61,643 bases of DNA from a virus: the IMG/VR virus record IMGVR_UViG_3300034691_000060, positions 1-61,643 of that record; one strand, written 5' to 3'. The number at the start of each line of letters is the position of its first letter. The stretch's first letter is position 1. The translations under genes and the position numbers were made by a program. Shown here in pieces: positions 5,800 through 47,033 of the stretch. The notes under the pieces are model-generated. The model did no database searches, was not told the origin of the DNA, and saw only the letters and a program-made list of their open reading frames with translations.

Positions 5800-5818
5800 G
5801 TCGCCTCTCCTGTGTGTG

Positions 5819-7623: not shown

Positions 7624-7629
7624 TATAAT
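7624..7629 (+). promoter_or_regulatory. perfect TATAAT hexamer 38 nt upstream of the first plus-strand gene
   Basis: TATAAT in a low-GC patch. No convincing -35 (TACCCC). Confidence 0.3.
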
Positions 7630-7666
7630 CGCGTTTCTTTACAACAAAAACGCATTGAGGACGGGA

Positions 7667-9991: not shown

Positions 9992-10026
9992 GCAACATCG
10001 CCCCCTGCGGGGCGCGGATTGAAACG

Positions 10027-10239
10027 ATGGGTAGACCGGCACATTCGACGCTGTCGTTGGCGGACCTGGGCGAGGCGATGCGCGCGCTCGACCCGGCGTC
10101 TATTCCTTTAGATAAGCGCAAGCACGCGATCAAGCTGCGGCTGTTGGATCTGATGGGGCAGACCCTGGTCGATCCGGCCGAGCGGATGGTGGCTCGGGGC
10201 GCGTTGTTGCTGGAGCAAGAGGCGGAGGCCCGGCGGTGA
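10027..10239 (+). CDS. hypothetical protein (70 aa)
   Basis: MGRPAHSTLS.... ATG at 10027 within ORF 9940..10239. Confidence 0.5.
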   Translation: MGRPAHSTLSLADLGEAMRALDPASIPLDKRKHAIKLRLLDLMGQTLVDPAERMVARGALLLEQEAEARR

Positions 10240-30243: not shown

Positions 30244-30248
30244 TCGCG

Positions 30249-31595
30249 ATGGCCACTCCAGGGAAGCAACAGAACATCCCCGTGAATACCGTTTACGGGA
30301 CATACGGGCAGCCAGACGGGATCTCCGGCTCCGCCTACAACCAGTGGGCGCAGTTCGGCGACATGGGCGGGGCTCCGGCATGGATGCAGCCTGGCAAAAA
30401 GCTGACCGGTTGGACGCGTTACACGACTCCGCCGGCGCCGTCGTTCGGTTACAACGCCAGCAATGAGGACGGGTTGCCCCAAGGAGCGAATCTCACTCGG
30501 CCGAATACGGGCTGGTTCGACACATCCACTTACGTTCCGATCTGGGAACAGGACAGTGCGCCGGCTCAGGCCCAGGCCCCGGCGGCAGTTCAGGCCGCGC
30601 CAGCCGTGACGAACCAGGGTCAGGCCGCTGCCGAGGTCGCCGCCCAGCAAGCGGAGATCAACAAGAACACGCAGCAGTCGGCGGAAAACGTCCGGCTCAG
30701 CGGGCTGTCGGCCCAGGCCCAATCCATTCTCGACAGCCTCGCCGGATCGATGGGCGGGCTGACATCCAAGACCGGCTACGGCATCGATAACGCCCGCGCT
30801 CAGTCGCAACAGGCCAGCGACATCCTGGCTCAAATCCTCGGCTCGGGGGCGGTGTCGCAGGGCCTGTACGACGCCAGCGGGGCCAACCTACTTAAGACCC
30901 GGCTCGGCAGCTACGGATCGACCCTGGACACGCTGACGGGCCAGCGCCAGGCGGAACTGACAGCGCTCCTCAGCGGCGCCCAAGGGCAAATGACGACGGC
31001 TTCGGGACTCAACGACTGGGACGAGGCGAATCTGCGCAAGGCGATCTCGGCCATCACCGGCGCCCAAGACACGCTCGGCACTTACCAGGGCGGCGATGTG
31101 GCGGGGGCGGCCGATGCGTTACGGTCGATCTACGGCGGGGTCAACACCCGACTGACCAATCTCGGCACCAAGCGCGGCGAGATCGAGACCGGGGCGCAGG
31201 ACATCTACAAGAACCTTCAGGCCGGCACCTACCGCGGGCTGGGGGAGCTGACCCCCTACGAGCAACAGGTGGAGGCGCTCAAGGGCAACCTGGACAAGTG
31301 GGGCGCCTCCCAGGCCACCGACGAATACCAGGCCATCTTGGACATGCTGGGGGTCAATCGGACCCGTCTCCAAGGCGAGGCGGACAAGATCGCCAGCCAG
31401 GATGCGGAGGCGGCCAAGCGCTACCGGCAGCTTCAGGGGGACCTCTCGACGGGGGCTCGCGCGCCGCTGTCGCCCCAGGCAATCGGCGCCTCGACCAACA
31501 TCGCCGGGACCAACTTGCAGTCGTTACAGAACGACAAGCAGGACGTTTCCGGCTACGACACGGCGGCGCTGTTGCGTGCGCTGGGTCTCGCTTAA
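30249..31595 (+). CDS. internal virion/ejection protein candidate (448 aa)
   Basis: Q/A-rich, low-complexity, helical. The call is positional. Confidence 0.65.
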   Translation: MATPGKQQNIPVNTVYGTYGQPDGISGSAYNQWAQFGDMGGAPAWMQPGKKLTGWTRYTTPPAPSFGYNASNEDGLPQGANLTRPNTGWFDTSTYVPIWEQDSAPAQAQAPAAVQAAPAVTNQGQAAAEVAAQQAEINKNTQQSAENVRLSGLSAQAQSILDSLAGSMGGLTSKTGYGIDNARAQSQQASDILAQILGSGAVSQGLYDASGANLLKTRLGSYGSTLDTLTGQRQAELTALLSGAQGQMTTASGLNDWDEANLRKAISAITGAQDTLGTYQGGDVAGAADALRSIYGGVNTRLTNLGTKRGEIETGAQDIYKNLQAGTYRGLGELTPYEQQVEALKGNLDKWGASQATDEYQAILDMLGVNRTRLQGEADKIASQDAEAAKRYRQLQGDLSTGARAPLSPQAIGASTNIAGTNLQSLQNDKQDVSGYDTAALLRALGLA

Positions 31596-31607
31596 GGGGT
31601 CACGACC

Positions 31608-32825
31608 ATGCCATTCGGACTTGCGATGCTGGCGGTGAGTGCCTATGGCGCCTATTCGTCCGCCCAGTCGGGGAAGGCGGCATCCAAGCAGGCGAAGAAC
31701 GCCGCCGCCCAAGAAGCTGCCTCCCAGGAACAGCAACTCGCCTTGCAGCAGCAGGCGATGCAGTACACCAAGGATCAGAACAGCTGGCGCATGGCGCAAG
31801 GACAGGAGAACCAGGACTACACCCGCGCGTGGTCCGAGGCCGACCTTCAGCGCCGACTTGCTGCCGCCGGGTCTGCCGAAGAACGGATGCAGATCGCTGA
31901 TGCGATGGACATGGCCGAGCGGATACGCCAGATCAACCAGATCAACTCCAACCAGCAGCTCTCCGAACAGGAACGGCAGCAGGCACTGAGCTACCTGGAC
32001 TACAACCAGCGCCAGGCCGCCCAAGAGCGAGAGTTCGATGTGAACCGGCTGGCCCGCATGGAAGACAAGGCGGGCTACATCGGCGACCGAATGGAGCAAA
32101 CCCTGTCCGGGCTCGGCAGCATGGTGAAGCGACCCGAATACGGCGCCAGCGATGTCAATTCGGCTTACCAGGACATCCTGGGGGGCTACATGTCGGCCGC
32201 CGACCGGGCCGCCGACCGGGTGGCCAGCGTCAACGAGGCACAGGACATCGCCCGCGGGATGGATTCCTCAAGCACAGGCGAGTCCTCGCGCCGCCGGGTG
32301 CTCCGGGATCAGGTGTCGCCCCTCTACGAACAAGCCCAGGCCAAGGCGCGGCTGGAAGCCCAGCAATACATCTCCGGGCTGGCCGGGCTCCAGACGAGCT
32401 ACGGCAGCCAGGAGCTGGCGCGGCGCAATCAGACGCTCGATGAAGTCAGCAAGGCGCTCAGCCCAGAGCTTCAAGCCTTGATGCAGATGAAGACCCCGGG
32501 AAGTGCGACGAGCTACCAGGCGCCAACGAGCATCGGGTCGGCGTTACAGCAGGCGTTCAACGTCAACAAAGGCTACAACGACCAGATTGCCAACCCGGTT
32601 CAGACCTACGGAACGTCGGCGCCGACGTTCAATCTTGCGAGCCTGAACCTGGACAACTTGTCCGGCGGCAGCTCCGGCGGCGGATCTGGCGGGAGCAATG
32701 CGCTGGGTTGGGCGCAAGAAGCGGCGAAAGGCTATTCGGCCGCCGGCAGCGGGATCACCGATCTGATCACCCAGCTTTCGAAGACGCAGTGGGGCAAGGA
32801 CATGACCGCGAAGTGGGGGGGCTGA
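31608..32825 (+). CDS. internal virion protein candidate (405 aa)
   Basis: N-terminal hydrophobic segment, Q-rich helical body, Gly-rich tail. Confidence 0.65.
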   Translation: MPFGLAMLAVSAYGAYSSAQSGKAASKQAKNAAAQEAASQEQQLALQQQAMQYTKDQNSWRMAQGQENQDYTRAWSEADLQRRLAAAGSAEERMQIADAMDMAERIRQINQINSNQQLSEQERQQALSYLDYNQRQAAQEREFDVNRLARMEDKAGYIGDRMEQTLSGLGSMVKRPEYGASDVNSAYQDILGGYMSAADRAADRVASVNEAQDIARGMDSSSTGESSRRRVLRDQVSPLYEQAQAKARLEAQQYISGLAGLQTSYGSQELARRNQTLDEVSKALSPELQALMQMKTPGSATSYQAPTSIGSALQQAFNVNKGYNDQIANPVQTYGTSAPTFNLASLNLDNLSGGSSGGGSGGSNALGWAQEAAKGYSAAGSGITDLITQLSKTQWGKDMTAKWGG

Positions 32826-32829: not shown

Positions 32830-34908
32830 ATGGCAGCATTCGGCGGATACGGGTGGCAGCAAGGGATCGAGCATTCGCAGGAGCGCTCGGACCGGCGTCG
32901 AGCCGATGTCGCCCGGGCCTTTCAGGAGATGCGCAACGCCAACCCGAACGCGACCCTGGCCGACCTGTCGTCCTGGATCGAGGGAAATGTCGGGCCGGCC
33001 GACTTCTATCTGCGCGGCACCCTGCCGGACGAGAACCAGCTGGGTCGCATCGCTCAGGAGAACGAGGACAGGAAGCGCCAGGCGGAGCTGACTCAGCGCA
33101 TGGGCGTGATCGAGTCGAAGGCCAATCTGCGCCAGAAGATCGACAAGATGATCGACGACCGGCTGATGTTCGCCAGCGGGTCAGACTACCAGGGCATCAT
33201 CCGCGACGTAACGAAGGAGCTTGGGATCGAAGGCGACCCCGAGATGACGGCTATGGTGGCGGGGATTGCCGGCGATCTGGACGGGCGCAAGCGGCGACTG
33301 GACAACCAGGTCTGGACCCAGAATCAGCCCAACTGGACAAGCGCCATCGAGACGATGAGTCGGGCCGGAATGGCGCCGGACCGCCGGGCTTTCGAGCAAG
33401 CGATCGGAACCAACGTATCCGATAGCAACTGGGCGAATGCGCAGCAGCATTACGAGTCTTCGCGCCTGGCGAAGGCCCGCGACGACGAACTGAAGATGTT
33501 CGACATCGAGAGCAAGGTGGTCGGAAACGAGTCCTACACCAACTCGCTATCGGTCTCCGGCGACAACACGACAATGGCGGCAATCAAGGCCGGCATCCGC
33601 GAACAGCTCAAAGCCGTGGTCCCGGCCGCCGATCTGGATGCCCGCATCGAGAGTGCCTACAACCAGATCGAAGGGCAGGCAATGATCAAGCGCCGGGCGC
33701 TGATCACCGCCAAGCAGACGACCGAAGCCAAGACCCTGATCGACCGCTACGACACCCAGGCCAAGCAGGGAAAGGACATGGTCGAAGGGCTGGTCAAGTC
33801 GGGCCTCATCCCCGGCGCGGAGAATGCGGTCACCGCTCTGTCCGTCCAGTATTCGTTGCCTCCGGAAGCCTATACCTCGGTCGTCCCGGAGGTCATCAAG
33901 ACCAACAAGGACTTTGCCAAGAAGAACCCCAAGGAACAGCAAGACATCCTGCTTGCCGCACTGAAGGACAAGGGCATCGTGCCAGTAGAGATCGCCGGGA
34001 TCGAGAAAGCGGCGGCGGAGAAGGCCAGGCAGGCGGTTCCCTACCCAATGCTCCAAGCCGAGTTCGAACGGAAGGCAACAGAGAAAGCCAGCTCGTACAT
34101 AAAAAGCGCAAGGTCAGCGCTCGACTCTGTAACGAAGTCGATTTTCGCTCCGGACATCTCCTCCCAATCCGAGCTGGATTCGCTCATCGCCGACCGGAAG
34201 GCCCGGCTCGAGGCCTATGTCGAAGACCTTGGAAAGCTCAAGCAAAGCTTGGTCGAAACGCGACTTAACCCATTGGAACGCGACGGAAGATGGTCGGACG
34301 ATGCAGGCCAGGCCGCTATCGACGAGATCGACATGGCGCTCAAAGGGGCGCAGCGCGAGTTGGAGCTACCGATTATTCGGACTACCCCGCTTGGAACACC
34401 GTCGAGCGCACCGCCGAGCGAACCGCCAATCGACCTTAGCCAATTCGGGTATGGAGCAGTAGGAGCCGGACAGAAAAGCGCCCCAATCGCCGGCCTCAGC
34501 CACTCCGCCCAACGCCGGGCCGCCACCTACATGCCGGTCATCAATCAAATGGCGCCGCAGTACGGGCTCGACCCCAACCTGATTGCCGCCATGACGATTC
34601 AGGAAAGCGGGTTCAATCCGGACGCCAGGTCGTCGAAGAATGCCCAGGGCATCATGCAGCTCATCCCGGACACGGCGAAGCGGTTCGGCGTAACGGACCC
34701 GTGGGACCCGATCCAAAACCTGCACGGCGGGATGCGATACATGGTGTTCCTGCTGAATCGCTACGACGGGAATATCCCGTTGGCCTTAGCCGCTTACAAC
34801 GCGGGGGAAGGAAAGGTCGACAGGTACCGCGGAATCCCGCCATATCGGGAAACGCGCGAGTACGTGAAACGAATCATGTCCCGCTACATGAATAGCCAGA
34901 CCGCTTAG
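32830..34908 (+). CDS. internal virion protein with a C-terminal lytic transglycosylase (SLT) domain
   Basis: MTIQESGFNPDARSSKNAQGIMQLIPDTAKRFGV...AYNAGEGKV at about 34,530-34,870. Confidence 0.85.
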   Translation: MAAFGGYGWQQGIEHSQERSDRRRADVARAFQEMRNANPNATLADLSSWIEGNVGPADFYLRGTLPDENQLGRIAQENEDRKRQAELTQRMGVIESKANLRQKIDKMIDDRLMFASGSDYQGIIRDVTKELGIEGDPEMTAMVAGIAGDLDGRKRRLDNQVWTQNQPNWTSAIETMSRAGMAPDRRAFEQAIGTNVSDSNWANAQQHYESSRLAKARDDELKMFDIESKVVGNESYTNSLSVSGDNTTMAAIKAGIREQLKAVVPAADLDARIESAYNQIEGQAMIKRRALITAKQTTEAKTLIDRYDTQAKQGKDMVEGLVKSGLIPGAENAVTALSVQYSLPPEAYTSVVPEVIKTNKDFAKKNPKEQQDILLAALKDKGIVPVEIAGIEKAAAEKARQAVPYPMLQAEFERKATEKASSYIKSARSALDSVTKSIFAPDISSQSELDSLIADRKARLEAYVEDLGKLKQSLVETRLNPLERDGRWSDDAGQAAIDEIDMALKGAQRELELPIIRTTPLGTPSSAPPSEPPIDLSQFGYGAVGAGQKSAPIAGLSHSAQRRAATYMPVINQMAPQYGLDPNLIAAMTIQESGFNPDARSSKNAQGIMQLIPDTAKRFGVTDPWDPIQNLHGGMRYMVFLLNRYDGNIPLALAAYNAGEGKVDRYRGIPPYRETREYVKRIMSRYMNSQTA

Positions 34909-34918: not shown

Positions 34919-37900
34919 ATGCCAATTTACGAGCCAGACCTGTCGCGCGTCGTCTCTCCGTCCAACGAGCTGGAGCAGGGATTCACCAAAGACATCCCGG
35001 CGAACGAACTGCTGAAAGACCGGCGCGTCCTGCAACAGATGCGGGACTACTACAACGAGACCGGCGAGTCGTTCTCCAATGACGAAGAGATGATCTCCGA
35101 GTACATGTCCGACATGCGCTGGCGCTCTGCCAATACGGTCGGCGCGGCGATGGATCTCAACACCACCGAAAACCTCACCCCCAAGGGCAAGGAGGCGTAC
35201 GCCAACCTGCTGGATGTCTTCCAGCGGGTGCCGAGCTTTTCCGATGAAGGCGGCGGCGTGCTCGGCTGGCTCACCACCTATGGCGCGGCCGGCATCCTGG
35301 ACCCCATCAACCTCGTGGGCGGGGCTGTCGGCAAGAGCGTCGGGATCGCCGGGACCAAGGCGGCGACGATTGCCGGGCAAAGCGCGCTGCGCGAGGGCAT
35401 CAAGGCGGGCGTGAAGCATGGCGCCATCCAAGAGGCGGCGGCCAATGCGGCAGCCTCCGGAGTCATCAGCGGACTGGAGCAGGAGCGCGACATCGGCCTG
35501 GGGCGCCGGGACGAGTTCTCGAAGATGGAGCTTCTTGGCGATACCGCCCTGGGCGGTGCAATCGGCGGCGTCCTGGGAGGCGGCATCGGCGGCGCGGTCG
35601 GGGCAGTGCAGGCACCGAAGCGCATCCTGGCTGAGCAGGCCCGGCAGATGGGCGAGCTGGGGCTGCCCGACGCGGCTTCGGCTCCCGGGCTGGGCGAATC
35701 GATTGGCATCGGCGCCAGGGGACTCGGGCGCGAGGCGTGGGATACCGTTGCCCGCCCGTTCGGCAAGGCCCCGAGCGAGCTGAGCCCCGAGGGGAGTGCC
35801 GGGCGGTTCGACGAATTGGCGCGCGGGCAGGCCGACCAAATCTCCGTCGCCCGGCAGGCCGAAACCGACCGGTTGGCGGCCGAAGCGGCGGCGGCGATTC
35901 CGGAAGTCGAGACTCCCCCGGTAACGCGCAACTTCGCTGCCGAGCTGGCGGCCGAGCGGAAGCATCTGGAAGACCTCCGCAAGTCGAAAGTCGACAAGGA
36001 CACCCTGGCATTCCAGCAATCTCGGGTGGACGACATCGGCGCGCGGATGCAGATCCAGCACGAAATCGACTCCGTTACGAAAGCCAAGGCGTCGATGGAA
36101 GACGGCGGGAAGGCCGACCCGGCCACGCTGTCGACCTTCACGTCCCGCCTGGAAACGCTGCAAGACGCGGCGACCCGCATCGACAACGACCCGACAACCA
36201 ACGGGCTCGAGGAACTTCGCAAGCTGCGAGGGATTCAGGCTGCGCAGGCGAAGCAAGAAGTCAACGTCGACCCCCAGGCGAAGAAAGAGGGCAACGCCGA
36301 TGCGAACGGGGAGCAGAAATCCGCTGACCAAAAGTCCCCTGAAGACACCCAAGTCGCGGGTGACCAATCCACTCAACCGAAGACAATTCCCGAAGGAACA
36401 ACGATTCCGGGGGTCACGTCCGCACAAGCCCAGCCCGAGACGCAAGGGGTAGTCCAACCGCCACCTCCGCCCCCGGCCGACCGCACTGCCGAGCTTCCGG
36501 ATCTGGCGCGGCAGTTCTACGACGTTTTCGCCGCAGATAACCCGGGGTTTGCCGATTACTTTTCAGGGAAAGTTGCTGCCGGACTCGACCCGAAAACCGT
36601 CGAACCGAAAACGCTTTTTCAGATTCACGCCGAGTTGGTGAAAGGACCCGCCACCCCTAAGCCGGACCCCGTCATCAAAGCCCAAGCGGCGGAGCGGGCG
36701 AAGACCGAGCGGCTGGCCACGGCGCCGCCCCCGGTTGCCGACCCGCGGGTGCTCGACGAGATCGAGAAGGGCCGCTACATCGGCAATGCCAGCGGGGAGA
36801 AGACCAAGGCGAAGCTTCAGGAGAACGCCCACCTGTTGACGGCCGAGGATGTCCAGGCAACGCGTAACGCCAAGGGTCTGACGGTCGGCGAGCTGGTCGA
36901 CAAGAAGGTGACCGAGCGCCGGCGACAACAAGTCGTCAATGCGAAGGAGGCGGAGAAGCAGGAGAAGGTCCGCGCCCAGCAAATCGAGGCAGAGCTGCGC
37001 GCCCAGCAAGCGTCGGCCGGAGAGAAAGCCGCCGCCGCCGAGAAGACAGTCAAGGTCGCAGAGCAAGCGTTCACGCCGATGACGCCCGAGGAAGCCAGCG
37101 CCAAGGCGATGGACTTTCTCAACACGACGATGTTCGCCGACTTGCTTAAGGGCATCGAGTCCACCGACCTCGGGCGCGAGGCGCTCGCCGCCGCGGTGGC
37201 CGTCTACCGCAACATCGGGCGCACATCCGCCGGCGTCATGGACCGCATGCTGTCCAAGATCGGCGCCGATGTGGCGGACCTCTACCGGGGCAAGCTCGAC
37301 AAGATCGAGAACCTGGTCGCCGACACGATGCGCGATGTCTATGTCGGCGCCGGGGACGATCCGCGGGTAGCCGAGCTGAAGGCGCTGGTTTACACCTTCG
37401 GGCTGAAGGCGAAGGAGGCGGCACCGCCCAAGGGTGCCACGCCGAAGGAGGCATTCCCCTACCTTGGCGGCTCGTTCGGGTCGGAGATGGAAGCCCAGGC
37501 CCACGCCACGATTCAGGCCAACAAACAGGTCATCGTCGGCTACCGAACCGCGACGGTGCCGGACCGTAACGTGGTGACCGGCGCCATCACGATGCGTCGG
37601 ATGAAAGTCCCGATCTACCAGAAGCAGGGATTCTCGGATCCCGTCCCGTGGGTGTTCTCCGGAGCGGCCGAGGAGATCGACCAGGTCGGCCGGGTGGATC
37701 TGCGCAGCGGCAAGCAACGCAAGGCGCCGAAGCGGGCGGTCCCATTTACGTCCGGCCAACGCGTTTGGTACGACCCGATCACCCGCCGCTCTTACGGCAC
37801 CATGGAGGAGCTGTTGCAGGTCCGCGACGGCAAGGGCTTCACCAGCGCCCCGGTCGCCCGCGAGGACCTGACGCCCGACCGGCAGCCCAGCGAGGCGGAG

Positions 37901-40900
37901 CAGGCTCGAGCCCAAGCGGTTATAGAGCAGAAGGCGCAGGCGGCACAGGAGCGCGTCGACGCGGCACAGGATGCCGTGACCCAAGCAGCCGACTTCCGCG
38001 ACCGTACCCCGCCGGACAGCGAGAACCTGCCAATGGCGGAGGAAGCGCTGGCCGGTGCCGAGCTGGACCTTCAGGCGGCACAGAAGACGCTGGATAGGCT
38101 CCTCGGAAAGGCGGCGCCGACACCGATCGACCGGAAGGAATTCATCCGGCTGGCCCGCACGTCCGGCGTCGATACGGCAACCGATCGGCTCCACGCCCAG
38201 ATGCTGGAACGCGAGCTGAAGCCAGCTCCAGAGGCGCCCAAGCGCGGGATCGACCGCGAGGTACGCGCCCGCAAGGTGGCGGAGATGCCGACCGAGGTTC
38301 CGACCGGGCGCCGCGGGGCCCTGTTTCCCAAGGACGGCAACATCCATGGCGTGCGGATTCTGCGCGACAAGCAGGTGGCGGAGGGAAAGACCGTCCGCGA
38401 CTTGCTGGGGGAGGAAGGCAACCCGGAAGACTTCATCGTCGGGCATGTGCCGGAGACCCTGGCCGCCGACAAGAAGAACGCCGCCGCCTACTTCGAGCCG
38501 TTCGAGTCGAAGGCCACGACCGAGGCGCCGAAGCCCAAGGGGATGAGTCGGGATTCGGCCACGATGATGCTGTTACGCGACAGCGATATTGCCGAACTGA
38601 GATCCGCCGGGTGGGCTGTCGACCCGAGCCGCACCGTCGAGTGGCTGAACCACGTTCTTGCCTTCGAGGATGCCGAAAAGTCCTGGGGATTGATTCCGAA
38701 CAAGGACACCTTCGGGGAGCATGTCGATAAGCTGCGCGCCGGGTATCGGGTGTTGTCCGAGCTGGCGCCCGGCGGGATTCTGCGCGATGTCGCGACGCGC
38801 GAAGAGGCGATTGCCGAGGTTCGGCGGATGTTCGCCAAGCAGCCGCCTGCCATCCTGGCCGAAGCCGAGCGTTTTCTGGCACGGCTGGCTGGCGATGCGT
38901 CTCCCATTCTCTCCCGCGATCCGTTGAGCCCGCCGCGTGAGGGGAAAGTCGTTCTCGGGCAGTTCCGGAAAGACCTCGACACGGCGGAAGCCAACCGCGT
39001 CTACGTCAACACGGAAACGGATGTCGCCCATCCTGTGATGGGCACGACCGCGGCGCTGCAAACGCTGTGGCACGAGGTTGCTCACTGGGCCTACATCAAC
39101 ATCCTCACCCCCGAGGACCGGCTGACCTTCTGGGAGGGGGTCGGCGAGCAGATGTACGACAAGAAAACCGGCCAGATTTCAGAGGCGGCGTTCGACCGTC
39201 TGTTAGGCCCGCGGCATAACGAAAAAGCGACCGGCGGAAACCTGACGGGGAACGGTCGCTCCGTCGTCAACGAGCTTTTCGCAGAGCAATTCGTCACCTG
39301 GATGGGCCGGGAAAGCGAAACGGTGGGAGATCCGGCGTTCTGGGGCCGCATGACCCAGATCCTCAAGGCGGTGTTCGACTGGTTCCACGGCAAGAACCCG
39401 GTCGCCCCCGAATTCGAGGCGCTGTTCTCCAAGATCGTGCCCAACGAAGAGGAGCGGATGCGGCTGGCGGCTGGCGGCGGCATGCGACTGGCCGATCTGT
39501 CCGACATCGGGCGCCATGTGCGCAGTCGAGGGCTTCAGCTCGACGATCTCGAAAACGACTTCTTCCCCGCCTGGCTGGACAGCGACCCGGCGGCCATGGT
39601 TTACCAGTCCAAAGAAGTACTGCGCCACATTGCTTCGCTGGTGCCCAGTTTCCACGGTAAGGAGAAGGCAAAGGGCAGCTTTGGGCCGCTGGCCGGGATG
39701 CGTAACGAGCTAATAGAGGCGCGCAAGGCGTTGCTCGTGGCCTTCCGGGATTCCGGCATCGAGGTCAACGAGGAAAAGCTCTCCGTCGCCGCATCCCTGG
39801 ACCGGTCCGACCCGTTCCTGACCGAGCTGACCGAGCTATTCGCGACCGGGAAAGCCGACGCCGACACGCTGGACGCCCTGTTCGAGATCCGGGCCATTCC
39901 CAAGCAGATGGAGCGGCGCATCCGGCAGGCGATGTCGGACCCACAGGCCCGCGCCAAGGTGTTGGACGATGTCGCGGCCTACGTGGAAGAGTCCCCTGTG
40001 GTTGGCGATGCGGCGGCGGACGCAGCCTTCGTGCACGAGCAACTGGGCGAAGACGGGGTCATGCGGATTGCCGACCCGCGCTATGCCGACAAGGCGCTGC
40101 GGGACCTCTTCGAGACCATGAGCCTGCCAGACCTGTTCGGCACCATGCGGGCACTTTACCGGCAGGCGTTGATCGATACCGACGGGATCGGCACGCTCAA
40201 CATGGCGGAGATCCCCGAGTCGATCCGCCAGGCCAAGACGCTGACCCCCGAGATGCTGAAGAAGCACCGCGAGCAGTTCCGGTCGCCGCCGGCGGCCATG
40301 CGTCGTTACGAGTCGCGGCTGCTGTCGTTGGGCATCGAGCCTCCGCCGCGCCGGGTGGGCGAGCCCGGGGCCAAAGCCGTCGGGCAGGAGCGGACGGACG
40401 CTACCAAGGCACGCAAAGCGCAGGCGGCAGCGGCGATCAGCCGGAGGAAGCTGACCAAGCTCGATCAAGACGGGTTGCTCGACCTGTGGCGCAAGACCGA
40501 CAGCGATGCGGACAAGCGACAGATCGCGTCCGTCCTGACCGAGAAACTCAACGCCGAAATCCCAGCGTCCGAGGCGGAAATCTACGGGCGGCAGAGCGGC
40601 CGGCGCCCCTACACCGGACTGCGCTCTCCCGAGTTGCACGCCAAAGCCATCGAGTTGTTGGATTCAGGAGACGCCGACGGGGCGCGACAGGTCGCCATGG
40701 AGATGCGGCTTCGGCAGATGAAGAAGTCCGGCGACAGTGCCGGGCTGTCGATGCTGACCTTCCGCGAAACGGCCATGCGCGACGGGATCGAGGACAGCGT
40801 CAGCGTGCCGGCGAAGGCGCCGTTGCTGATGAAGCCCCTGCTGAAGGCCATGCAGCACCGCGACCCGGCGATTGCCCGAACCCAGCGCACCCTGGCCTTC

Positions 40901-43900
40901 CGTCTGCTGTCGCTGGCCGGCGACCACCAGCTGCTGACCAACGCCCATGTGGCGGAGCTGTTGGGCTGGGACCCGCCGGAGACCGTCTCCCCGATCTCGG
41001 TGTCGGACGATGCCTACAAGGAACTCAGAAAATCGGCACGGCATCTGGCCGTGGCCACACAGCGCGGGGCGGCCGACCCGGAGGAGACCGTGGGGCAGCT
41101 GGCGAAGTTGCTGGTCCGCTCCGGCGCCCTGTCCGACCGACGCGCAGACGTCCAAAGCCTGTTCGACCGCTGGGTCGACAGCGAGGCCGGGCGCGGTGCC
41201 GCCCTGGATACCTACGACGGAATCCTCACCGATACCCCCGAGTCCTGGCTGGCGTCGCTGTGGACCAAGACGGCGTCCAACACGCCCTCGCCGCAGCCGG
41301 ACTGGGTCCTGGACATGCCCGTGGCGCCGGAGGTCTTCTCCCGCCTGACTTCGGTCGGCGCGTTCGATTCGACGGCGTACATCACCCCGCGCGTCCTGGC
41401 GGAAAAGGCGATGAGCCTGGAGCTGGCGGCGTGGAAAGCGCTTGGCGACAAGGCCGGATTCGACCGGGTCATGGCGGAGCGGGCCGCGGTCTACGACGCC
41501 CTGGAAACCGCCCTTCCGACCGGGGTCAAGATGCCCACGGTCAGCGCCAAGCAGACGCTGGCCCAAGCCAAGGCGATCTTCTCGAAGCACGACCCGGAAG
41601 TGCTCGATGCGGCGATTTCGCTGCTGTCGGGGACGGGGTTCCGCGGCGGCGAGGGGTTCCGGCTGCGCGAGGCCGACCTGAGTGGCGAGGGCGCGCGGGG
41701 AATCACGACGCTCGGCTTCCGCGGGACGGAGTCGAACGCGGTCGTCTTGTCGAATCGTTACGGAAGCATGGCGACCGGGGAGAAAAACCCGCAGTCCGGC
41801 GCGGATCGGCTCAGCACCCTGATTCACGAGGTCGGGCACTGGGCCTACTTCAACATCCTCGGGCGCGACGAGCGCGACGCGTTTTGGAAGTGGGTCGAGA
41901 CCGCCAACTTCAAGCGGGGGCCCGACGGCGGGTTCGTCCGGGAGGCGCCGCTGCTCCACACGAACCCCTCTGCCGACCCGTCGTTCGGCGGGGTGCGCTC
42001 GAATGCGGCCGAATCCCCGCAGGAAATGTTTGCCGAGCTGTTCAACGCCTGGGCGCAGTCGCGCGGGGACTCCCCCGTGGCTCAGCCGTCGTGGTGGGAC
42101 ACCTTCTCGGCCGATGTCCGGGACGTTCTGGAGTGGCACACCAATCCGATGTCGGTGCCGGACGAATTGACCCAGGTCATGTCGCGCATTCTCCCGGTCG
42201 GCGACTCGGGCATCGCGCTGCCGGTCGGGACCGCGGCGAAACTCCACGGGCTGTCGGTCAATGCCGCCTTCCCCCGGGAGCTGTTCGGGGCCGATCTCGC
42301 TGCCAAGGGGCGCGCCGTGCTGCAGGACATGACCGATGCCGCCGCCTATGTGCTCAACGGGCAGGTGGCCGACGGGGCGCTCAAGGACCGCTATCTGCGC
42401 CTGTTCTTGTACGGCGACTTGTTCGACAACACCGACAAGGCGCTGTCCCTGGATGCCCGCGTGCGCCCGGGGCGCGAGGCCGACTACGAAGCCAAGCTGC
42501 TCACGGCCATGAGCCAGACCGAGCGCGAGTCGCTGCGCCAGTGGACCCGCGGCGGGGCCGGCGAGTACCCCGACGGGTCGCCAAAGGTGCACTACCTGAC
42601 GCCCGACGGAGAGATCGTTCGGCGCACGCCGGGGGCCAAGCGCACGCCGGGGCAGCTGACGAGCCCGCGTGCCGTGGCTCTGGCGGAGCGGCGTAACGAC
42701 TTGCTGGATGCCGCAGACCAGTCGGACTTCCGGGCGGAAAACCTGCGTAACGTCTTCCGCACCAACGGCGGAGACACGCACCTGACCATGGCGCGAGAGG
42801 CAGAGGCCCGGGCCCGGCGACTGGAAGACCAGGCCAACGCCATCGAGGACCGCCTGACCGAGATGGGTGAGCCGCTGTTCTCCCCGGTCGAAGCCGTCTC
42901 CATCCGCGCCGACGATCCGCTCGACCTGAGCGATTCCGCCTGGATGGATGTCCAGTCGTCCCAGTTCGAGGACGTTGTCTCCTCCGTTGCCGCGCGGGCG
43001 GCGCAACGCTATGGCGGGGTCGACATCGAAGACGCGCTCCGCATCTACGCCAGCGCCGAATCGGTCGGCGGCACCACGGTGCGCGGCGACGTCTTCTACC
43101 AGTCGCTGCTCGATGCCGTTGCCCACTCGGTGGAGACCGACCAAGGCACCGCCAAGGCATTGGTCGATGCGTCCATGTTCGACCTCGGTCACGACGTCGT
43201 GCTGCATGCCGGCGGCCAGGTGGTGCTGCGCGATCCCAGCGTCCAGGCGCGCTCGATCAAGGGGCTGTTGGAGAACCCCGAGCCGAAGGAATCGCTGACC
43301 CCCAGCCCCGTGGCGGGCCGCACGGTCGGGTCCGTGATCCAGGCCATGGCACTGAGCGACGATGCGGCCACCCCCAAGCATGCGCTGCGCACGGCATTCG
43401 GCAGCCTGCCCCCGGCGGACCGCGAGATCGGCGACCTGTTCTCCGAAATCTCCGAAGGCGGGGTGCCCTCCGAGGCCGGGCTGACGAAGCTCCGGGAGGC
43501 CTCCCGCTCGACCCGCACCTTCGGCACCAATGCCAAGCGGATGCACCAATACGGGATGCGGTATCTCGGCAAGTACACCGAGGATTACTCCCCAGCGGTG
43601 AACCAACAGTTCGGACAGTGGTGGGCGCCGCTCGTGGACGCGTTACGCGCCGTCGAACCGGAGTCGAGCGCACTCGGACGGGCCGCCAGGAACTACGGCA
43701 AGAACCTGCTGGCGCCCTTCTCCAAGGCGGAGCAACCGGAGGCCCACGCCAAGGTCATGCGGGTGCTGCGCTACGCCCCCGGGACCACGCACTTCGACCG
43801 GCTGTGGGCGGGGCTCAAGCCCAAGGAACGCGATCTGTACAAGACGGTGCGGCAGACCTTCGGCTCCGCGCTCGACCGGCTTAAGCAAGCAGGCGTGGTC

Positions 43901-46168
43901 ATCGGCACGGTCAAGAACTACGTCCCCCAGGTGTGGGACACCAACGTCATCGCGAAAAGCCCCGAGGCCTACCGGCACGTGATCGCCGGGTACCTCAAGC
44001 GCGAGTGGGCACGCGAGGGGCGAACGGTCGACAACCCGGACCTCAAGGCGCAGGAGATTGCCGACGGCATGCTGGCCAAGCTGACCCAGGAAGACGGGGT
44101 CTACATCCCCGAGCACCGCGGCACCGGCGGGGCGGGGCGGGCGGACAGCCTGGACTACCAGCGGATGATCCGGCTCCAAGACGACCCGATTGCCATGGCC
44201 GAGATCGACGAGTTCGCGCGTAACGGCACGCCGTTGCTGCTCGACAACCTGGAGACCATCACCGTCCGCTACCTGGACCAGGCCGCACGCCGGGCCGTGG
44301 AAGCCGACACCCTGGGGCACCGGGCCTTTGCGCTGAACGACTACACCCGCGCCGTCTTCGAAGGCCGGGGCGCCGTGGCCGATCTGCTGTCGTCCAACAA
44401 GGTGTGGCGGATGCGCCGCTACATCGGCAGCGACGGCGGCATGGAGATGCGCGAGGACAACCTCCCGGTCGCCATGCCGTTTGCCACCGCCAAGGAAGCG
44501 ACCGCCTTCGTCGATACCCTCACCGCCGCCATCGGCGAGAACAATCCAGCGGCTGGGGTCGCGATGATCATGGCCCGGATGCCGGAAGCCAACCGCCAGC
44601 CCTACCAGAAGGCCGCCTACGCCCGCCGGGCCGAAGCGATCGCTAACGGGATTGCCGATGCCGGGGGGTACGCCAAGGACACGGGCGTGCCGCTGAAGCC
44701 CATCCATGCCCAGGGCTACAAGGACGCCATGGGCACCGTCCTGGCCCTGCAGGGGCGCCTCAACTCCGGGGCCAACGAGCACATGAAGGCCTTCTCGCGC
44801 GGCATGCGCACCTTCAACTCGATCAGCCTGCTGTCCATGGCGACCCTGTCCTCGCTGGGGGATGTCCTGCTGCCGCTGGTGCGCTCGGGAGACTTCAGGG
44901 CGTGGACCAAGGGCATGGCCAAGTTCGCCTCCGATCCCGACTACCGGCGCCAGATCCGCAACACGGGCGTGGCCTGGGAGTCGGTCCTGCACAACCGCAT
45001 GACCGGCCTCTACGCCGGGGATGTCGGCGGCACCGCTGGGAAGATCCAGACCGCGTTCTTCAACTTCAACATGCTGACCCAGTGGACCGACCTGGCCCGG
45101 CAGCTGGCTGGGGCGACGGGGTTGGAATCGCTGCGCACCCAGGTGGACATCGCCGCCCGCGCCTACAAGCCGAAGTTCCCGCCCATGGCACAGCCGCCGG
45201 AGTGGAAGCGGGCGAACCGCATCCTCAAAGCCTACGGGTTGGAGAGCTGGGCGACCAAGCCCGCAGGACTGTTGGATCCGTCCGACCCTGCCGTGGCGAG
45301 GGCGATGATCAAGTTCGCCGACGACACGGTGTTCTCCCCCGGCGCCGCGGAGACCCCGCTATGGGCGCAGACCCCGGCCGGATCGATGGCCTGGCAGCTG
45401 AAGAGCTTCCCGATGGCCATGCAGCGGATGGCGCTGGGCTCGGATGGACGCGGCGGGGTGCTGCGTAACGCGTTCCGGGCGGGGCGGCAGTGGCTGTCCC
45501 AGAGCAACCCGGCCTTCAAGGACCTGGCCCGCCCCGGGGACGACGCCTACACGGCGAAGGACGCGGTCCCGGCAATGATGCTGCTGAGTGCCGCTCCAGC
45601 CTTCGGGGCGCTGGTGGTGGGGGCGAAGGATCTGGCACAGGCGCGGGGGAAGGACGAAAACGACAAGTCGGCCCGTCAGCTGAAGGTGCGCAACCTGGCG
45701 ACCACGCCGGTCGGCGAGTTCATGGGGATGGAAGCGAGCGACCAGCACGACGTCTACGGCTGGATGTGGGACTCGATGCTGATGGTGGGCGGGCTGGGGT
45801 ACCTGGCCGAACTGTTACAAAGTACGGCTGCCAACGCGGACAACGGGTATTTCGGCCTTAACCGGACCATGTCCACCCTCCTCGGCCCCAGCTACGCCAT
45901 CACCACGGACGCCTACGCGGTGCTCCAAGGCGGGCTGCGCGGGACCAGGCGGGCGGCAGGGTTCATCCCGGAGGAGGAGCTGGGCACGGTCGGGCTGGAG
46001 CGGGGCGCCATCAACACGGTGCTCAAGCGGGTGCCTGTGCTGGGATCCCAGAACGACGCGCGCATGGGCATCGTGGATTCCATCGTGCCCAAGGAGGACG
46101 AAGGCGCGACCAAGAGCCCTAAGGGCTGGGGCGAGGCCGGGTGGGGCAAGAAGGGGTGGGGGAATTAG
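34919..46168 (+). CDS. giant virion-associated multidomain protein (3,749 aa) with two HExxH zincin-like modules
   Basis: Uninterrupted ORF. HEVAH at 39071..39085 plus NELFAE. HEVGH at 41825..41839 plus QEMFAE. Gly/Ala-rich hydrophobic N-terminal segments. Confidence 0.9.
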   Translation: MPIYEPDLSRVVSPSNELEQGFTKDIPANELLKDRRVLQQMRDYYNETGESFSNDEEMISEYMSDMRWRSANTVGAAMDLNTTENLTPKGKEAYANLLDVFQRVPSFSDEGGGVLGWLTTYGAAGILDPINLVGGAVGKSVGIAGTKAATIAGQSALREGIKAGVKHGAIQEAAANAAASGVISGLEQERDIGLGRRDEFSKMELLGDTALGGAIGGVLGGGIGGAVGAVQAPKRILAEQARQMGELGLPDAASAPGLGESIGIGARGLGREAWDTVARPFGKAPSELSPEGSAGRFDELARGQADQISVARQAETDRLAAEAAAAIPEVETPPVTRNFAAELAAERKHLEDLRKSKVDKDTLAFQQSRVDDIGARMQIQHEIDSVTKAKASMEDGGKADPATLSTFTSRLETLQDAATRIDNDPTTNGLEELRKLRGIQAAQAKQEVNVDPQAKKEGNADANGEQKSADQKSPEDTQVAGDQSTQPKTIPEGTTIPGVTSAQAQPETQGVVQPPPPPPADRTAELPDLARQFYDVFAADNPGFADYFSGKVAAGLDPKTVEPKTLFQIHAELVKGPATPKPDPVIKAQAAERAKTERLATAPPPVADPRVLDEIEKGRYIGNASGEKTKAKLQENAHLLTAEDVQATRNAKGLTVGELVDKKVTERRRQQVVNAKEAEKQEKVRAQQIEAELRAQQASAGEKAAAAEKTVKVAEQAFTPMTPEEASAKAMDFLNTTMFADLLKGIESTDLGREALAAAVAVYRNIGRTSAGVMDRMLSKIGADVADLYRGKLDKIENLVADTMRDVYVGAGDDPRVAELKALVYTFGLKAKEAAPPKGATPKEAFPYLGGSFGSEMEAQAHATIQANKQVIVGYRTATVPDRNVVTGAITMRRMKVPIYQKQGFSDPVPWVFSGAAEEIDQVGRVDLRSGKQRKAPKRAVPFTSGQRVWYDPITRRSYGTMEELLQVRDGKGFTSAPVAREDLTPDRQPSEAEQARAQAVIEQKAQAAQERVDAAQDAVTQAADFRDRTPPDSENLPMAEEALAGAELDLQAAQKTLDRLLGKAAPTPIDRKEFIRLARTSGVDTATDRLHAQMLERELKPAPEAPKRGIDREVRARKVAEMPTEVPTGRRGALFPKDGNIHGVRILRDKQVAEGKTVRDLLGEEGNPEDFIVGHVPETLAADKKNAAAYFEPFESKATTEAPKPKGMSRDSATMMLLRDSDIAELRSAGWAVDPSRTVEWLNHVLAFEDAEKSWGLIPNKDTFGEHVDKLRAGYRVLSELAPGGILRDVATREEAIAEVRRMFAKQPPAILAEAERFLARLAGDASPILSRDPLSPPREGKVVLGQFRKDLDTAEANRVYVNTETDVAHPVMGTTAALQTLWHEVAHWAYINILTPEDRLTFWEGVGEQMYDKKTGQISEAAFDRLLGPRHNEKATGGNLTGNGRSVVNELFAEQFVTWMGRESETVGDPAFWGRMTQILKAVFDWFHGKNPVAPEFEALFSKIVPNEEERMRLAAGGGMRLADLSDIGRHVRSRGLQLDDLENDFFPAWLDSDPAAMVYQSKEVLRHIASLVPSFHGKEKAKGSFGPLAGMRNELIEARKALLVAFRDSGIEVNEEKLSVAASLDRSDPFLTELTELFATGKADADTLDALFEIRAIPKQMERRIRQAMSDPQARAKVLDDVAAYVEESPVVGDAAADAAFVHEQLGEDGVMRIADPRYADKALRDLFETMSLPDLFGTMRALYRQALIDTDGIGTLNMAEIPESIRQAKTLTPEMLKKHREQFRSPPAAMRRYESRLLSLGIEPPPRRVGEPGAKAVGQERTDATKARKAQAAAAISRRKLTKLDQDGLLDLWRKTDSDADKRQIASVLTEKLNAEIPASEAEIYGRQSGRRPYTGLRSPELHAKAIELLDSGDADGARQVAMEMRLRQMKKSGDSAGLSMLTFRETAMRDGIEDSVSVPAKAPLLMKPLLKAMQHRDPAIARTQRTLAFRLLSLAGDHQLLTNAHVAELLGWDPPETVSPISVSDDAYKELRKSARHLAVATQRGAADPEETVGQLAKLLVRSGALSDRRADVQSLFDRWVDSEAGRGAALDTYDGILTDTPESWLASLWTKTASNTPSPQPDWVLDMPVAPEVFSRLTSVGAFDSTAYITPRVLAEKAMSLELAAWKALGDKAGFDRVMAERAAVYDALETALPTGVKMPTVSAKQTLAQAKAIFSKHDPEVLDAAISLLSGTGFRGGEGFRLREADLSGEGARGITTLGFRGTESNAVVLSNRYGSMATGEKNPQSGADRLSTLIHEVGHWAYFNILGRDERDAFWKWVETANFKRGPDGGFVREAPLLHTNPSADPSFGGVRSNAAESPQEMFAELFNAWAQSRGDSPVAQPSWWDTFSADVRDVLEWHTNPMSVPDELTQVMSRILPVGDSGIALPVGTAAKLHGLSVNAAFPRELFGADLAAKGRAVLQDMTDAAAYVLNGQVADGALKDRYLRLFLYGDLFDNTDKALSLDARVRPGREADYEAKLLTAMSQTERESLRQWTRGGAGEYPDGSPKVHYLTPDGEIVRRTPGAKRTPGQLTSPRAVALAERRNDLLDAADQSDFRAENLRNVFRTNGGDTHLTMAREAEARARRLEDQANAIEDRLTEMGEPLFSPVEAVSIRADDPLDLSDSAWMDVQSSQFEDVVSSVAARAAQRYGGVDIEDALRIYASAESVGGTTVRGDVFYQSLLDAVAHSVETDQGTAKALVDASMFDLGHDVVLHAGGQVVLRDPSVQARSIKGLLENPEPKESLTPSPVAGRTVGSVIQAMALSDDAATPKHALRTAFGSLPPADREIGDLFSEISEGGVPSEAGLTKLREASRSTRTFGTNAKRMHQYGMRYLGKYTEDYSPAVNQQFGQWWAPLVDALRAVEPESSALGRAARNYGKNLLAPFSKAEQPEAHAKVMRVLRYAPGTTHFDRLWAGLKPKERDLYKTVRQTFGSALDRLKQAGVVIGTVKNYVPQVWDTNVIAKSPEAYRHVIAGYLKREWAREGRTVDNPDLKAQEIADGMLAKLTQEDGVYIPEHRGTGGAGRADSLDYQRMIRLQDDPIAMAEIDEFARNGTPLLLDNLETITVRYLDQAARRAVEADTLGHRAFALNDYTRAVFEGRGAVADLLSSNKVWRMRRYIGSDGGMEMREDNLPVAMPFATAKEATAFVDTLTAAIGENNPAAGVAMIMARMPEANRQPYQKAAYARRAEAIANGIADAGGYAKDTGVPLKPIHAQGYKDAMGTVLALQGRLNSGANEHMKAFSRGMRTFNSISLLSMATLSSLGDVLLPLVRSGDFRAWTKGMAKFASDPDYRRQIRNTGVAWESVLHNRMTGLYAGDVGGTAGKIQTAFFNFNMLTQWTDLARQLAGATGLESLRTQVDIAARAYKPKFPPMAQPPEWKRANRILKAYGLESWATKPAGLLDPSDPAVARAMIKFADDTVFSPGAAETPLWAQTPAGSMAWQLKSFPMAMQRMALGSDGRGGVLRNAFRAGRQWLSQSNPAFKDLARPGDDAYTAKDAVPAMMLLSAAPAFGALVVGAKDLAQARGKDENDKSARQLKVRNLATTPVGEFMGMEASDQHDVYGWMWDSMLMVGGLGYLAELLQSTAANADNGYFGLNRTMSTLLGPSYAITTDAYAVLQGGLRGTRRAAGFIPEEELGTVGLERGAINTVLKRVPVLGSQNDARMGIVDSIVPKEDEGATKSPKGWGEAGWGKKGWGN

Positions 46169-46908
46169 GTCAGAGCAAAGGTCTCGCGAGCCGCCTCGGC
46201 AAAATCCATGGCGGCTTGCTCGTCCTTCTGCATCAAGCCGAACAGGTATTCCAGGCCCTTTGCCGTGACAAGGATCTGGCGCCCCATCTCCCACCCGCCT
46301 ATCAAGACAGGGACGGCGACATACTCGAAGCGCCCGGCGTCGATGTGCTTCTGGTATGGCGCCCCGTTACGACGCAACAACCCCCACTCCGCATACTTCG
46401 CACGTAGACGCTTCTCGCCGATGCCGAGAACCTTGGCAGCCTGGTCCGTCGGCATCGAGCCTTTGGACCCGGAGAGCCGACGGTGGTAGTCGACGGAGAA
46501 CTGGGCAGCCTCGAGCTTTGACTCCAGGCACAGAACCTTCTCGACCTGATCCGCCCACGCCCGTGCCGCAATCGCCGGGTTGGTGAAGTCGGGGAGGCCG
46601 AAACCGGGCTTCTTGATGACGGCTTCCTCTAGCTCGGCAAGCCGTTTGATGACCCGCATCCTGGCGGTGGAGTCGTAGCCGGTCATCAGGCAGTACACGC
46701 TGTCGCGATCCATGACGACCTGGCGGTTGACCTTTCCGGAAGAGTCGACGTAAGTGCTTGATGTAAAGCCTAAACCCAAATCTGGGTTCAGTGTCTCTAG
46801 CAAAGAATCTATGTCCCTCAGCACATGAGCATGGCGCTTCCCGGTCAGCTTGGAGACTTCCCGGCTGGTCATGGTAAGGGTGGACGGATGGACGATTTCG
46901 TTGGCCAT
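46165..46908 (-). CDS. Rha-family regulator fused to a KilAC/ANT antirepressor domain
   Basis: MTSREVSKLTGKRHAHVLRDI (Rha pattern). C-terminal DQAAKVLGIGEKRL...APYQKHIDAGRFEY (KilAC pattern). Its stop overlaps the giant-gene stop. Confidence 0.8.
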   Translation of the reverse strand: MANEIVHPSTLTMTSREVSKLTGKRHAHVLRDIDSLLETLNPDLGLGFTSSTYVDSSGKVNRQVVMDRDSVYCLMTGYDSTARMRVIKRLAELEEAVIKKPGFGLPDFTNPAIAARAWADQVEKVLCLESKLEAAQFSVDYHRRLSGSKGSMPTDQAAKVLGIGEKRLRAKYAEWGLLRRNGAPYQKHIDAGRFEYVAVPVLIGGWEMGRQILVTAKGLEYLFGLMQKDEQAAMDFAEAARETFALT

Positions 46909-47033
46909 AAAAACCCCACTTGGTTGGACGATATGCTCGGGATGGAACAGGCACCCGGTTAAGGCTGCCCCCCGAACAGATCGCCCACCGAGTGGGGCTG
47001 CGCCGGGTTCCATGCCGACCCGGCAATCCTACC

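Follow-up and report, generated by a model that had tools for sequence, protein, structure and literature searches.

A cysteine-free giant protein in an environmental phage genome: a probable gp16-class ejection protein carrying polyvalent-type cargo

Which role can a single protein of 3,749 amino acids (aa) play in a phage with a genome of ~61.5 kb? This question is raised by the IMG/VR virus record IMGVR_UViG_3300034691_000060, whose positions 1 to 61,643 were analysed as one stretch of 61,643 nucleotides (nt), here called the window. An open reading frame (ORF) at 34919..46168 on the plus strand starts with ATG, contains no internal stop and encodes a protein without cysteine, here called the giant. 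It is the final and largest gene of an internal-virion cluster 3' of the tail genes. The original prediction, made from the sequence alone, had described a single uninterrupted ORF of about 18% of the genome, which holds (18.3% of the ~61.5-kb unit), and had read its product as an ejected protein of the polyvalent type. The latter now receives computational support from an N-terminal match at E 8e-16, from matches of the C-terminal region in BFVD, from the lack of cysteine and from an ADP-ribosyltransferase (ART) domain, ART-PolyVal, in relatives. On this computational basis, we assign a probability of about 0.75 to the giant being the last and largest ejection protein of a short-tailed phage, a gp16-class protein in which ~2,600 residues of polyvalent-type cargo separate the N-terminal module from the C-terminal one. 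In short-tailed phages, a protein of this kind is ejected into the cell and opens a channel for the DNA.

Among independent arguments for four ejected proteins, encoded by the giant gene and the three genes before it, the absence of cysteine from all of them is the strongest. Between 30249 and 46168 of the window, no cysteine occurs in 5,294 consecutive residues, distributed over proteins of 448, 405, 692 and 3,749 aa. The first two (30249..31595 and 31608..32825, both on the plus strand) match no family and are candidate ejection proteins. The third (32830..34908, plus strand) occupies a gp15-like position and carries a C-terminal SLT lytic transglycosylase domain at aa 570-676 (PF01464, E 2e-27). 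Three proteins in front of the giant, one of them with an SLT domain, had been noted before, and only their boundaries had to be corrected to the lengths given here. The other structural proteins of the phage, including tail-like proteins of 500 and 526 aa directly upstream, contain 0.4-1.2% cysteine. Cysteine avoidance extends to the relatives of the giant, with 2 cysteines in 103,981 residues of 33 complete relatives and 1 in ~48,000 residues of 14 representative giants. T7 gp15, T7 gp16, HTVC142P gp34, HTVC142P gp35 and the virion RNA polymerase (vRNAP) of phage N4 each contain none. In the Schitoviridae, suppression of cysteine has been published as conserved in the ejection operon and is explained there by the oxidising environment of the periplasm that the proteins have to cross (PMC11445570). 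In podophages not yet characterised, the limits of the ejection operon might be recognised by consecutive genes without cysteine.

Homology to a protein in gp16 position is found at the N-terminus. The N-terminal domain (aa 1-240; 34919..35638, plus strand), identified by tblastn and BLASTP, contains a DPxNL motif and two hydrophobic Gly-zipper segments. These are the Gly/Ala-rich hydrophobic segments noticed earlier, now located at aa 111-138 (nt 35249-35332) and aa 211-230 (nt 35549-35608), both on the plus strand. Residues 32-241 of the giant align with aa 29-260 of HTVC142P gp35 (BLASTP E 8e-16), a protein of 1,283 aa at the gp16 position of a T7-like pelagiphage (Autographiviridae). In HTVC142P, the genes run from capsid through tubular A and tubular B, two small proteins and a 655-aa protein to gp35 and fibre. 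By tblastn, the N-terminus of the giant also matches gp36 of Roseobacter phage CRP-810, annotated as 'internal virion protein D'. The domain is kept in 24 of the 40 family members checked. It is followed by a spacer rich in Ala, Glu, Lys and Pro (aa 241-1124; 35639..38290, plus strand). The charged low-complexity region that had been predicted was found at aa ~300-720, where A/E/K/Q/R/D/P/T account for 60-80% of the residues, together with a second strong stretch at ~960-1140. Spacer length is variable, and the distance from the N-terminus to the first zincin-like module (M1) ranges from 1,129 to 2,169 aa across the family.

At the other end, the C-terminal module (aa 2860-3749, 890 aa; 43496..46165, plus strand) is all-alpha with a Trp/Lys-rich tail. 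It had been described as a large region without recognised motif. Pfam and NCBIfam indeed give no match, yet it is the best-conserved part of the family, with NYVPQVWD as its best-conserved motif. Two hydrophobic helices resembling transmembrane segments are conserved in the family (aa 3302-3321, nt 44822-44881; aa 3548-3573, nt 45560-45637; both plus strand). AlphaFold2 modelling of the module with 14 relatives yielded an all-alpha model with a predicted local distance difference test (pLDDT) of 67.8 and a predicted TM-score (pTM) of 0.68. A Foldseek search of BFVD with this model returned family fragments named 'Large polyvalent protein associated domain-containing protein' (E 1e-36, TM-score 0.67), a 'structural protein' of phage KPP25 (E 4e-8, TM-score 0.44, probability 1.00) and at least 10 entries named 'internal virion protein D' or 'internal core protein' (E 1e-7 to 4e-3, probability 0.94-1.00, with 1.00 for many of them). 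The latter stem from Bordetella BB8, Vibrio VP2, Ralstonia RSB3, Xylella Cota, Marinomonas CB5A, Burkholderia JG068, Acibel007 and phiKT. PHROGs 684, 6958 and 30152 ('virion structural protein') match the C-terminal modules of 6-11 of the 14 members; for the giant itself, PHROG matches are weak, carry the same label and are confined to this module. Pfam and NCBIfam gave no match for the whole giant (Pfam E<=1) or for ten pieces of it (Pfam E<=10). Searches of PDB sequences with the giant gave no match, and those with the profile of the C-terminal module gave nothing significant.

The arrangement is close to that known for T7 gp16. Ejection proteins of podophages follow the order gp14-gp15-gp16; the lysozyme can be part of the gp15-like protein, and two transmembrane helices are predicted in the alpha-helical gp16 (PMC8954989). 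The gene order in the window matches this scheme, which we count in favour of a gp16-class assignment. Like T7 gp16, the giant is the last and largest of its cluster, lacks cysteine and is alpha-helical with two predicted transmembrane-like helices in its C-terminal part. The cluster likewise includes a lytic transglycosylase, carried in the window by the protein before the giant, a placement also seen in K1E and epsilon15, and a YVPxV(W/Y)D block is shared by the C-terminal module and T7 gp16 at aa ~665-671. The giant shows homology to the pelagiphage gp16-position protein at the N-terminus and, between predicted structures, a modest fold-level similarity to many annotated gp16-type proteins at the C-terminus. 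The giant differs from gp16-like proteins in size, being 2.8 times as long as the longest in a 2022 survey (609-1,337 aa; PMC8954989), and from T7 gp16 by the ~2,600 aa inserted, which comprise spacer, zincins and the relic of an ART.

This design is shared by a large family. With aa 2250-3449 as query against 1.84 billion representatives, phmmer found 225 clusters at E<1e-3, 169 of them below 1e-30, and nearly all members have lengths of 2.5-4.1 thousand aa. P0002, with 92% identity, was rejected as a relative because it is the window's own protein; the closest true relative, P0003, shares 38% identity. An alignment-based scan of IMG/VR detected 251 relatives, and scans of IMG/VR with single proteins detected none. 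A word-indexed protein search gave no match for the C-terminal module or the zincin alignment, and with a short core alignment it returned a single CRP-810-like fragment. Of the 33 IMG/VR loci that hold the whole gene, all except one or two have it as one ORF, with a median of 3,207 aa. The order in the family is N-terminal domain, variable spacer, M1, a second zincin M2' (HEIGH ... AEEWFAE), ART and C-terminal module. Between M1 and the C-terminus, the spacing is constant at ~2,010 aa, except for the window and P0003 (~2,370 aa).

The hallmark of the family is M1 (aa 1255-1528; 38681..39502, plus strand), with the consensus HExxHWAYFNIL ... SPQEFFANQF. In the giant, it carries HEVAH at aa 1385-1389 and the Glu helix NELFAEQF 67 residues further on. 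HExxH with a Glu on the next helix is the zincin signature given for the metallopeptidases (MPTases) of polyvalent proteins (PMC5512222). The two zincin-like modules of the original prediction are M1 and M2 (aa 2171-2446; 41429..42256, plus strand; HEVGH, QEMFAELF), and they are true paralogues with 25% identity (E 3e-22, aa 1255-1528 vs 2171-2446). HExxH, the downstream Glu and an Ala are invariant in 6 and in 21 diverse aligned modules, and both copies in the window are intact. A third, dead zincin has to be added to the two. M2 is nested inside M2', whose N-terminal part (aa ~1853-2110; 40475..41248, plus strand) was recognised by alignment with 9 relatives and whose C-terminal helix (..YVLNGQ..RLFLYGDLF, aa ~2455-2510; nt 42281-42448, plus strand) follows behind the insertion. 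The catalytic motifs of M2' are lost in the window, HEIGH being replaced by GQLAK and AEEWFAE by PESWLAS. The nested M1-like duplicate is common to the window and P0003, and it accounts for the ~360 extra residues between M1 and the C-terminus. Given these motifs, the zincin modules are reasonably likely to be metallopeptidases; their substrate could be the giant itself or host proteins. A search of PDB sequences with the zincin profile gave nothing significant.

Downstream of the zincins, aa ~2560-2790 (42596..43288, plus strand) represent a relic of ART-PolyVal, an ART with an H-Y-D active site (PMC5512222). Its second half aligns with the relatives. Of the catalytic motifs, neither YHGTP nor GxFGxGxY is preserved, with AKRTPGQL in place of the Tyr motif, and Pfam finds no match in this region of the window. 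Among the relatives, Pfam detects ART-PolyVal (PF18760) in 2 of 14 (E 8.7e-7), and the Tyr motif is present in 12 of 33. The distinct domains of the giant are two intact zincins of one type, a dead zincin and the ART relic, and those of the relatives zincin and ART-PolyVal. The pairing of MPTase and ART is the commonest in polyvalent proteins predicted to be injected, and the MPTase of N4 vRNAP follows its cargo (PMC5512222). With the polyvalent proteins of Iyer, Burroughs, Anand, de Souza and Aravind (2017), the giant shares several MPTase-type zincin modules on one polypeptide, ART-PolyVal in its relatives, the late or virion gene context and predicted delivery with the DNA; its relatives in BFVD are named after the large polyvalent protein associated domain (LPD). 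In contrast to them, the ART of the giant is decayed, and its effector modules would sit in a gp16-class ejection chassis, an arrangement that we did not find described in that paper. The dead ART, the dead M2' and the duplicated M1 make up the distinctive state of this giant, which has no relative above 38% identity.

The closest functional analogue, judged by architecture, appears to be the vRNAP of N4 (gp50) and DEV (gp71) in the Schitoviridae. This protein is also a cysteine-free giant of ~3,500 aa encoded together with other ejection proteins, and it combines hydrophobic helices in its N-terminal region, cargo, a zincin-like HExxH module and a large alpha-helical C-terminal domain. For the N4 giant, it has been suggested that an arrangement as beads on a string permits passage through a ~35 Å channel (PMC13434306, PMC11445570). 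Unlike N4 vRNAP, the giant lacks an RNA polymerase module; no relation between the C-terminal domains is detected, and capsid protein and genome type of the two phages differ. The zincins show a similarity that is no more than suggestive (Prob 7-23%). For the C-terminal module, homology to the C-terminal domain of N4 vRNAP was considered and rejected, with hhalign against the C-terminal third of the N4 protein yielding nothing.

Between N4 gp50 aa 2208-2370 and aa 1365-1520 of the giant, we observe a colinear triad of motifs with similar spacing. The blocks of N4 and M1 are TLIHELVH/TLWHEVAH, ALNEFMAWG/VNELFAEQFVTW and APALGEDMFSNLL/APEFEALFSKIV, each of them weak by hhalign; the patterns of the blocks are TL.HE..H, NEF..W and AP..E..FS..L. 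The triad may reflect shared ancestry of the protease modules of both giant ejected proteins.

Several results weigh against a gp16-class protein with polyvalent cargo. For the C-terminal module, hhalign of the family alignment against T7-like gp16 reached Prob 45% (E 2e-4, 131 columns, aa 2885-3030 vs gp16 553-702), which falls short of accepted thresholds. Against the single T7 gp16 sequence the value was Prob 12%, and against epsilon15 gp17 Prob 34%. The gp16 and gp17 alignments overlap in the module, and both are centred on NYVPQVWD, whose equivalent in T7 gp16 is TYVPHVYD at ~aa 665. These values are suggestive of a relation to gp16 and do not amount to proof. Foldseek of the C-terminal model against PDB found nothing (best E 0.07), and the solved T7 gp16 (7EYB according to PMC8954989) was not returned. 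TM-scores to the internal core proteins are only 0.2-0.44, and big all-alpha proteins can match loosely. Homology to the C-terminal part of the pelagiphage gp16-position protein was rejected, since it shows no similarity to the C-terminus of the giant. The name 'virion structural protein' of KPP25 ORF088 is a depositor's label. For the cargo, none of the Pfam models of the MPTase-PolyVal, LPD and ART-PolyVal families of the polyvalent-protein study matches the giant of the window. The best PDB profile matches of the zincin are the M48 proteases Ste24p/ZMPSTE24 at E 0.2-1, in register at HExxHW, and the hhalign comparison of M1 with the MPTase region of N4 vRNAP is weak. An AlphaFold2 model of M1 from 3 sequences reached pLDDT 38 and was not used for a fold search.

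If the assignment as a gp16-class ejection protein is correct, the following sequence of events can be proposed. The capsid core would be loaded with a few copies of the giant and with the three cysteine-free proteins encoded before it. After adsorption, all four proteins would exit unfolded via the portal-tail channel, and the SLT protein would cut peptidoglycan. The Gly-zipper segments and the two C-terminal hydrophobic helices are expected to insert at the inner membrane, where they would complete a DNA conduit. The intervening domains, namely the charged spacer, two intact zincins, the dead zincin and the dead ART, would be delivered as beads on a string. The zincin modules may then process the giant into functional fragments or act as proteases on host proteins. 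Packaging, ejection, membrane insertion, and protease activity and its target are inferred.

Alternatively, the giant could serve as a scaffold or core component inside the capsid, remain in the head or undergo degradation, and never reach the cell, with the zincins acting only as assembly or maturation proteases that trim it or other head proteins in the procapsid. The location in the virion module and the resemblance to 'structural protein' families agree with such a role, MPTases of polyvalent proteins are known or proposed to act in processing before packaging, as in P1 DdrB (PMC5512222), and a separate head-maturation protease was not noticed among the genes scanned. Nevertheless, we regard this role as unlikely. 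Extreme cysteine avoidance, in common with the three upstream proteins and with known ejected proteins, is hard to explain without contact to the periplasm, the N-terminus is homologous to gp16-position proteins, and the ART of the relatives is an effector-type enzyme without a role in assembly.

Less probable still is an external tail part such as a needle, a long fibre or a ruler-like protein, in which the coiled-coil spacer would be extended and the zincins would degrade surface proteins. The long charged spacer is probably helical, the giant is encoded just after tail-fibre-like genes, and enzymatic domains do occur on some tail proteins. However, the giant has no tail or fibre PHROG match whereas the neighbouring fibre genes do, and the structural neighbours of its C-terminal module are internal core proteins instead of fibres. 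The adjacent tail proteins contain cysteine and the giant contains none. Neither a beta-helix nor features of trimeric fibres are seen in the model, which is all-alpha.

A divergent N4-type virion RNA polymerase, or another nucleic-acid enzyme masked by divergence, is highly improbable. Size (3,749 vs 3,500 aa) and the absence of cysteine resemble N4 vRNAP, and in both proteins a zincin-like module stands after the cargo, with the HExxH, NEF..W and AP..E..FS triad in the same order. The earlier report that T7/N4-like RNA polymerase motifs are absent is nevertheless borne out by every search made: phmmer against PDB found no mini-vRNAP or polymerase chain at E<=1, Pfam and NCBIfam had no match, tblastn of three segments against phages gave no Schitoviridae or N4-like record, and hhalign of the C-terminal module did not recover the C-terminal third of N4 vRNAP. 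There is also no room for a polymerase, as the sole unassigned folded stretch between modules comprises ~330 aa and the region before M1 is largely of low complexity and variable.

That the ORF itself is an artefact, either a spurious long frame in GC-rich DNA or a fusion of genes by misassembly, has a negligible probability: shadow ORFs are long in such DNA (980 aa opposite the giant, 40664-43606) and the homologous region of CRP-810 is annotated as three genes, but 33 independent IMG/VR contigs of 37-56% GC contain colinear ORFs of 3,181-3,582 aa, the 225 clusters of relatives mostly have 2.5-4.1 thousand aa, their similarity extends over the entire length of the giant, and the split in CRP-810 lies at a 23-nt tandem duplication at the gp35/gp34 junction, which makes CRP-810 the exception. 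The giant ORF is a real gene. Stops in a random frame at 65% GC are expected at ~2.5% of codons, so that 3,749 open codons are not attainable by chance. A Shine-Dalgarno sequence (AGGA) lies 8 nt 5' of the ATG and overlaps with the TAG stop codon of the preceding gene. The 980-aa shadow ORF on the minus strand and further ones of 449-627 aa nearby are artefacts of GC-rich DNA and not genes.

The comparison with CRP-810 can be made gene by gene. By tblastn, the giant matches gp36, gp35 and gp34, the latter two annotated as 'hypothetical', and the three are colinear with aa 12-378, 907-2570 and 2868-3740 of the giant. The loci examined at the gp35/gp34 boundary (13900-13990 and 7880-7990) show the tandem duplication (ATGCTCCGTGGCCGCAAGCTCGA), and in related uncultivated viral genomes (UViGs) the region is one ORF. 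The annotation as three genes is probably a sequencing or assembly artefact, or a recent disruption. CRP-810 and ~250 related marine UViGs have the same modules, lack cysteine and place the genes at the same position before lysis and early genes. They differ from the giant in that identity is only 27-37%, the second zincin is intact, the ART is often intact and the nested M1-like duplicate is missing; CRP-810 in addition has three ORFs, of which only gp36 is named, and the capsid and replication modules of the window phage are different. The CRP-810 paper describes 251 related marine UViGs and does not discuss the genes homologous to the giant (PMC11288001).

A short form of the architecture exists as well. 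Proteins of ~2,000-2,100 aa from KPP25-type Pseudomonas phages and from Aeromonas phage phiA008 were matched by tblastn. KPP25 ORF088 (Kochitakasuvirus) and phiA008 gene 66 share the C-terminal module (24-28% identity over aa 3268-3506, Foldseek E 4e-8), one HExxH...E module upstream of it, a Gly/Ala-rich N-terminal region and the absence of cysteine. They differ by having a single zincin, and neither the long spacer nor an ART. In phiA008 (locus 4039-10191), the short-form relative starts with YDGDTIY..FRLYGIDTEE, which by eye looks like a putative staphylococcal-nuclease-type domain. If this holds, N-terminal cargo would also be exchangeable in the superfamily. A further gene resembling GNAT-type acetyltransferases was seen among internal-virion and tail genes of CRP-810 (gp40, locus 684-1142) and epsilon15 (gp13, 11122-11586), the latter annotated as 'internal virion protein'.

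Relatives of the C-terminal module are also present in bacterial assemblies, on a 72.5-kb contig of Kistimonas scapharcae JCM 17805 and on a 1.5-Mb scaffold of Motiliproteus coralliicola. These copies are presumably prophages. A temperate lifestyle is reported for CRP-810-type phages, and presumed prophage copies agree with it. Relatives in genome collections are ~31% identical and occur in marine Gammaproteobacteria and assorted metagenome-assembled genomes; they gave no host assignment.

The gene lies in one complete phage genome that is closed circularly or terminally redundant. An exact direct terminal repeat of 127 bp (window 1-127 and 61517-61643) sets the unit genome at ~61.5 kb, from which the 18.3% share of the giant gene follows. 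The corresponding Logan contig, from an assembly of SRR10968153, measures 61,546 bp. GC content of the window is about 64-65%. Near-identical DNA was not found in phage records. Phage markers are a large terminase, a portal, tail-fibre proteins, an SU10-type major capsid protein (PF17236) and the SLT protein, and the virion module is ordered as terminase, portal, fibres, SU10-type capsid, tail proteins, three small or medium proteins including the SLT protein, and the giant as last gene. Close to the giant, tail-like genes of 500 and 526 aa are followed by those of 448, 405 and 692 (SLT) aa, the giant and convergent early genes. The 526-aa tail-like protein (28663-30243) contains cysteine and has weak tail-fibre and minor-tail PHROG matches. 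An ORF of 892 aa at 28917-31595 was dropped as a single gene in favour of two tightly packed calls (28663-30243 and 30249-31595); it is probably an over-extension of the type usual in GC-rich DNA.

Early genes on the minus strand include an anti-repressor, an exonuclease, a helicase and CobS/CobT-like proteins. The anti-repressor gene (Ant/Bro-N-like; 46165-47013, minus strand) runs towards the giant gene, and the two overlap by 4 nt at the stop of the latter, which leaves no space for a terminator between them. On the contig of P0003, a comparable convergent early module with SSB, YqaJ and Bro-N is found. At the start of the window, a CobT-like gene (105-1919) and a CobS/porphyrin-biosynthesis-like gene of an AAA ATPase (1984-3330), both on the minus strand, match PHROG 17276 and 249. 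Genes of the CobT/CobS kind are auxiliary genes known from marine phages. They fit the mostly marine relatives of the giant, despite the 64% GC of the window.

Ejection proteins and polyvalent proteins are already known as kinds, and relatives of the giant are in databases under generic names. In the CRP-810 and polyvalent-protein papers and in literature searches, we found no account of the family, of its combination of chassis and cargo, of its geometry or of its cysteine avoidance. Tentatively, and at somewhat less than even odds, we suggest that the giant belongs to an undescribed class of at least 225 clusters, mainly from marine temperate podophages, in which the gp16-class inner-membrane subunit of the DNA ejectosome doubles as an effector vehicle and forms a counterpart of N4 vRNAP without RNA polymerase. 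In this class, conserved membrane or core modules at both ends would bracket exchangeable cargo (zincins, ADP-ribosyltransferase, spacer) that enters the cell ahead of the DNA and might act on host proteins or defence systems. The dead ART, dead protease and duplicated protease in the genome of the window would then be a snapshot of cargo turnover.

To our knowledge, no parts of short-tailed phages are less well understood than their ejection proteins, and we know of no well-studied megadalton-scale cargo threaded through a tail other than the N4 giant polymerase. If the proposed class is real, widespread environmental phages deliver proteases and ADP-ribosyltransferases, not a polymerase, embedded in a gp16-type channel protein. 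This would provide a new model of protein translocation via the portal-tail channel and a source of candidate host-takeover or anti-defence enzymes. It would also yield an annotation rule for metagenomic phages, by which consecutive genes without cysteine that come after the tail genes and end in a giant mark the ejection operon, and it would correct the annotation of genomes of the CRP-810 type, in which the homologous genes carry hypothetical labels.

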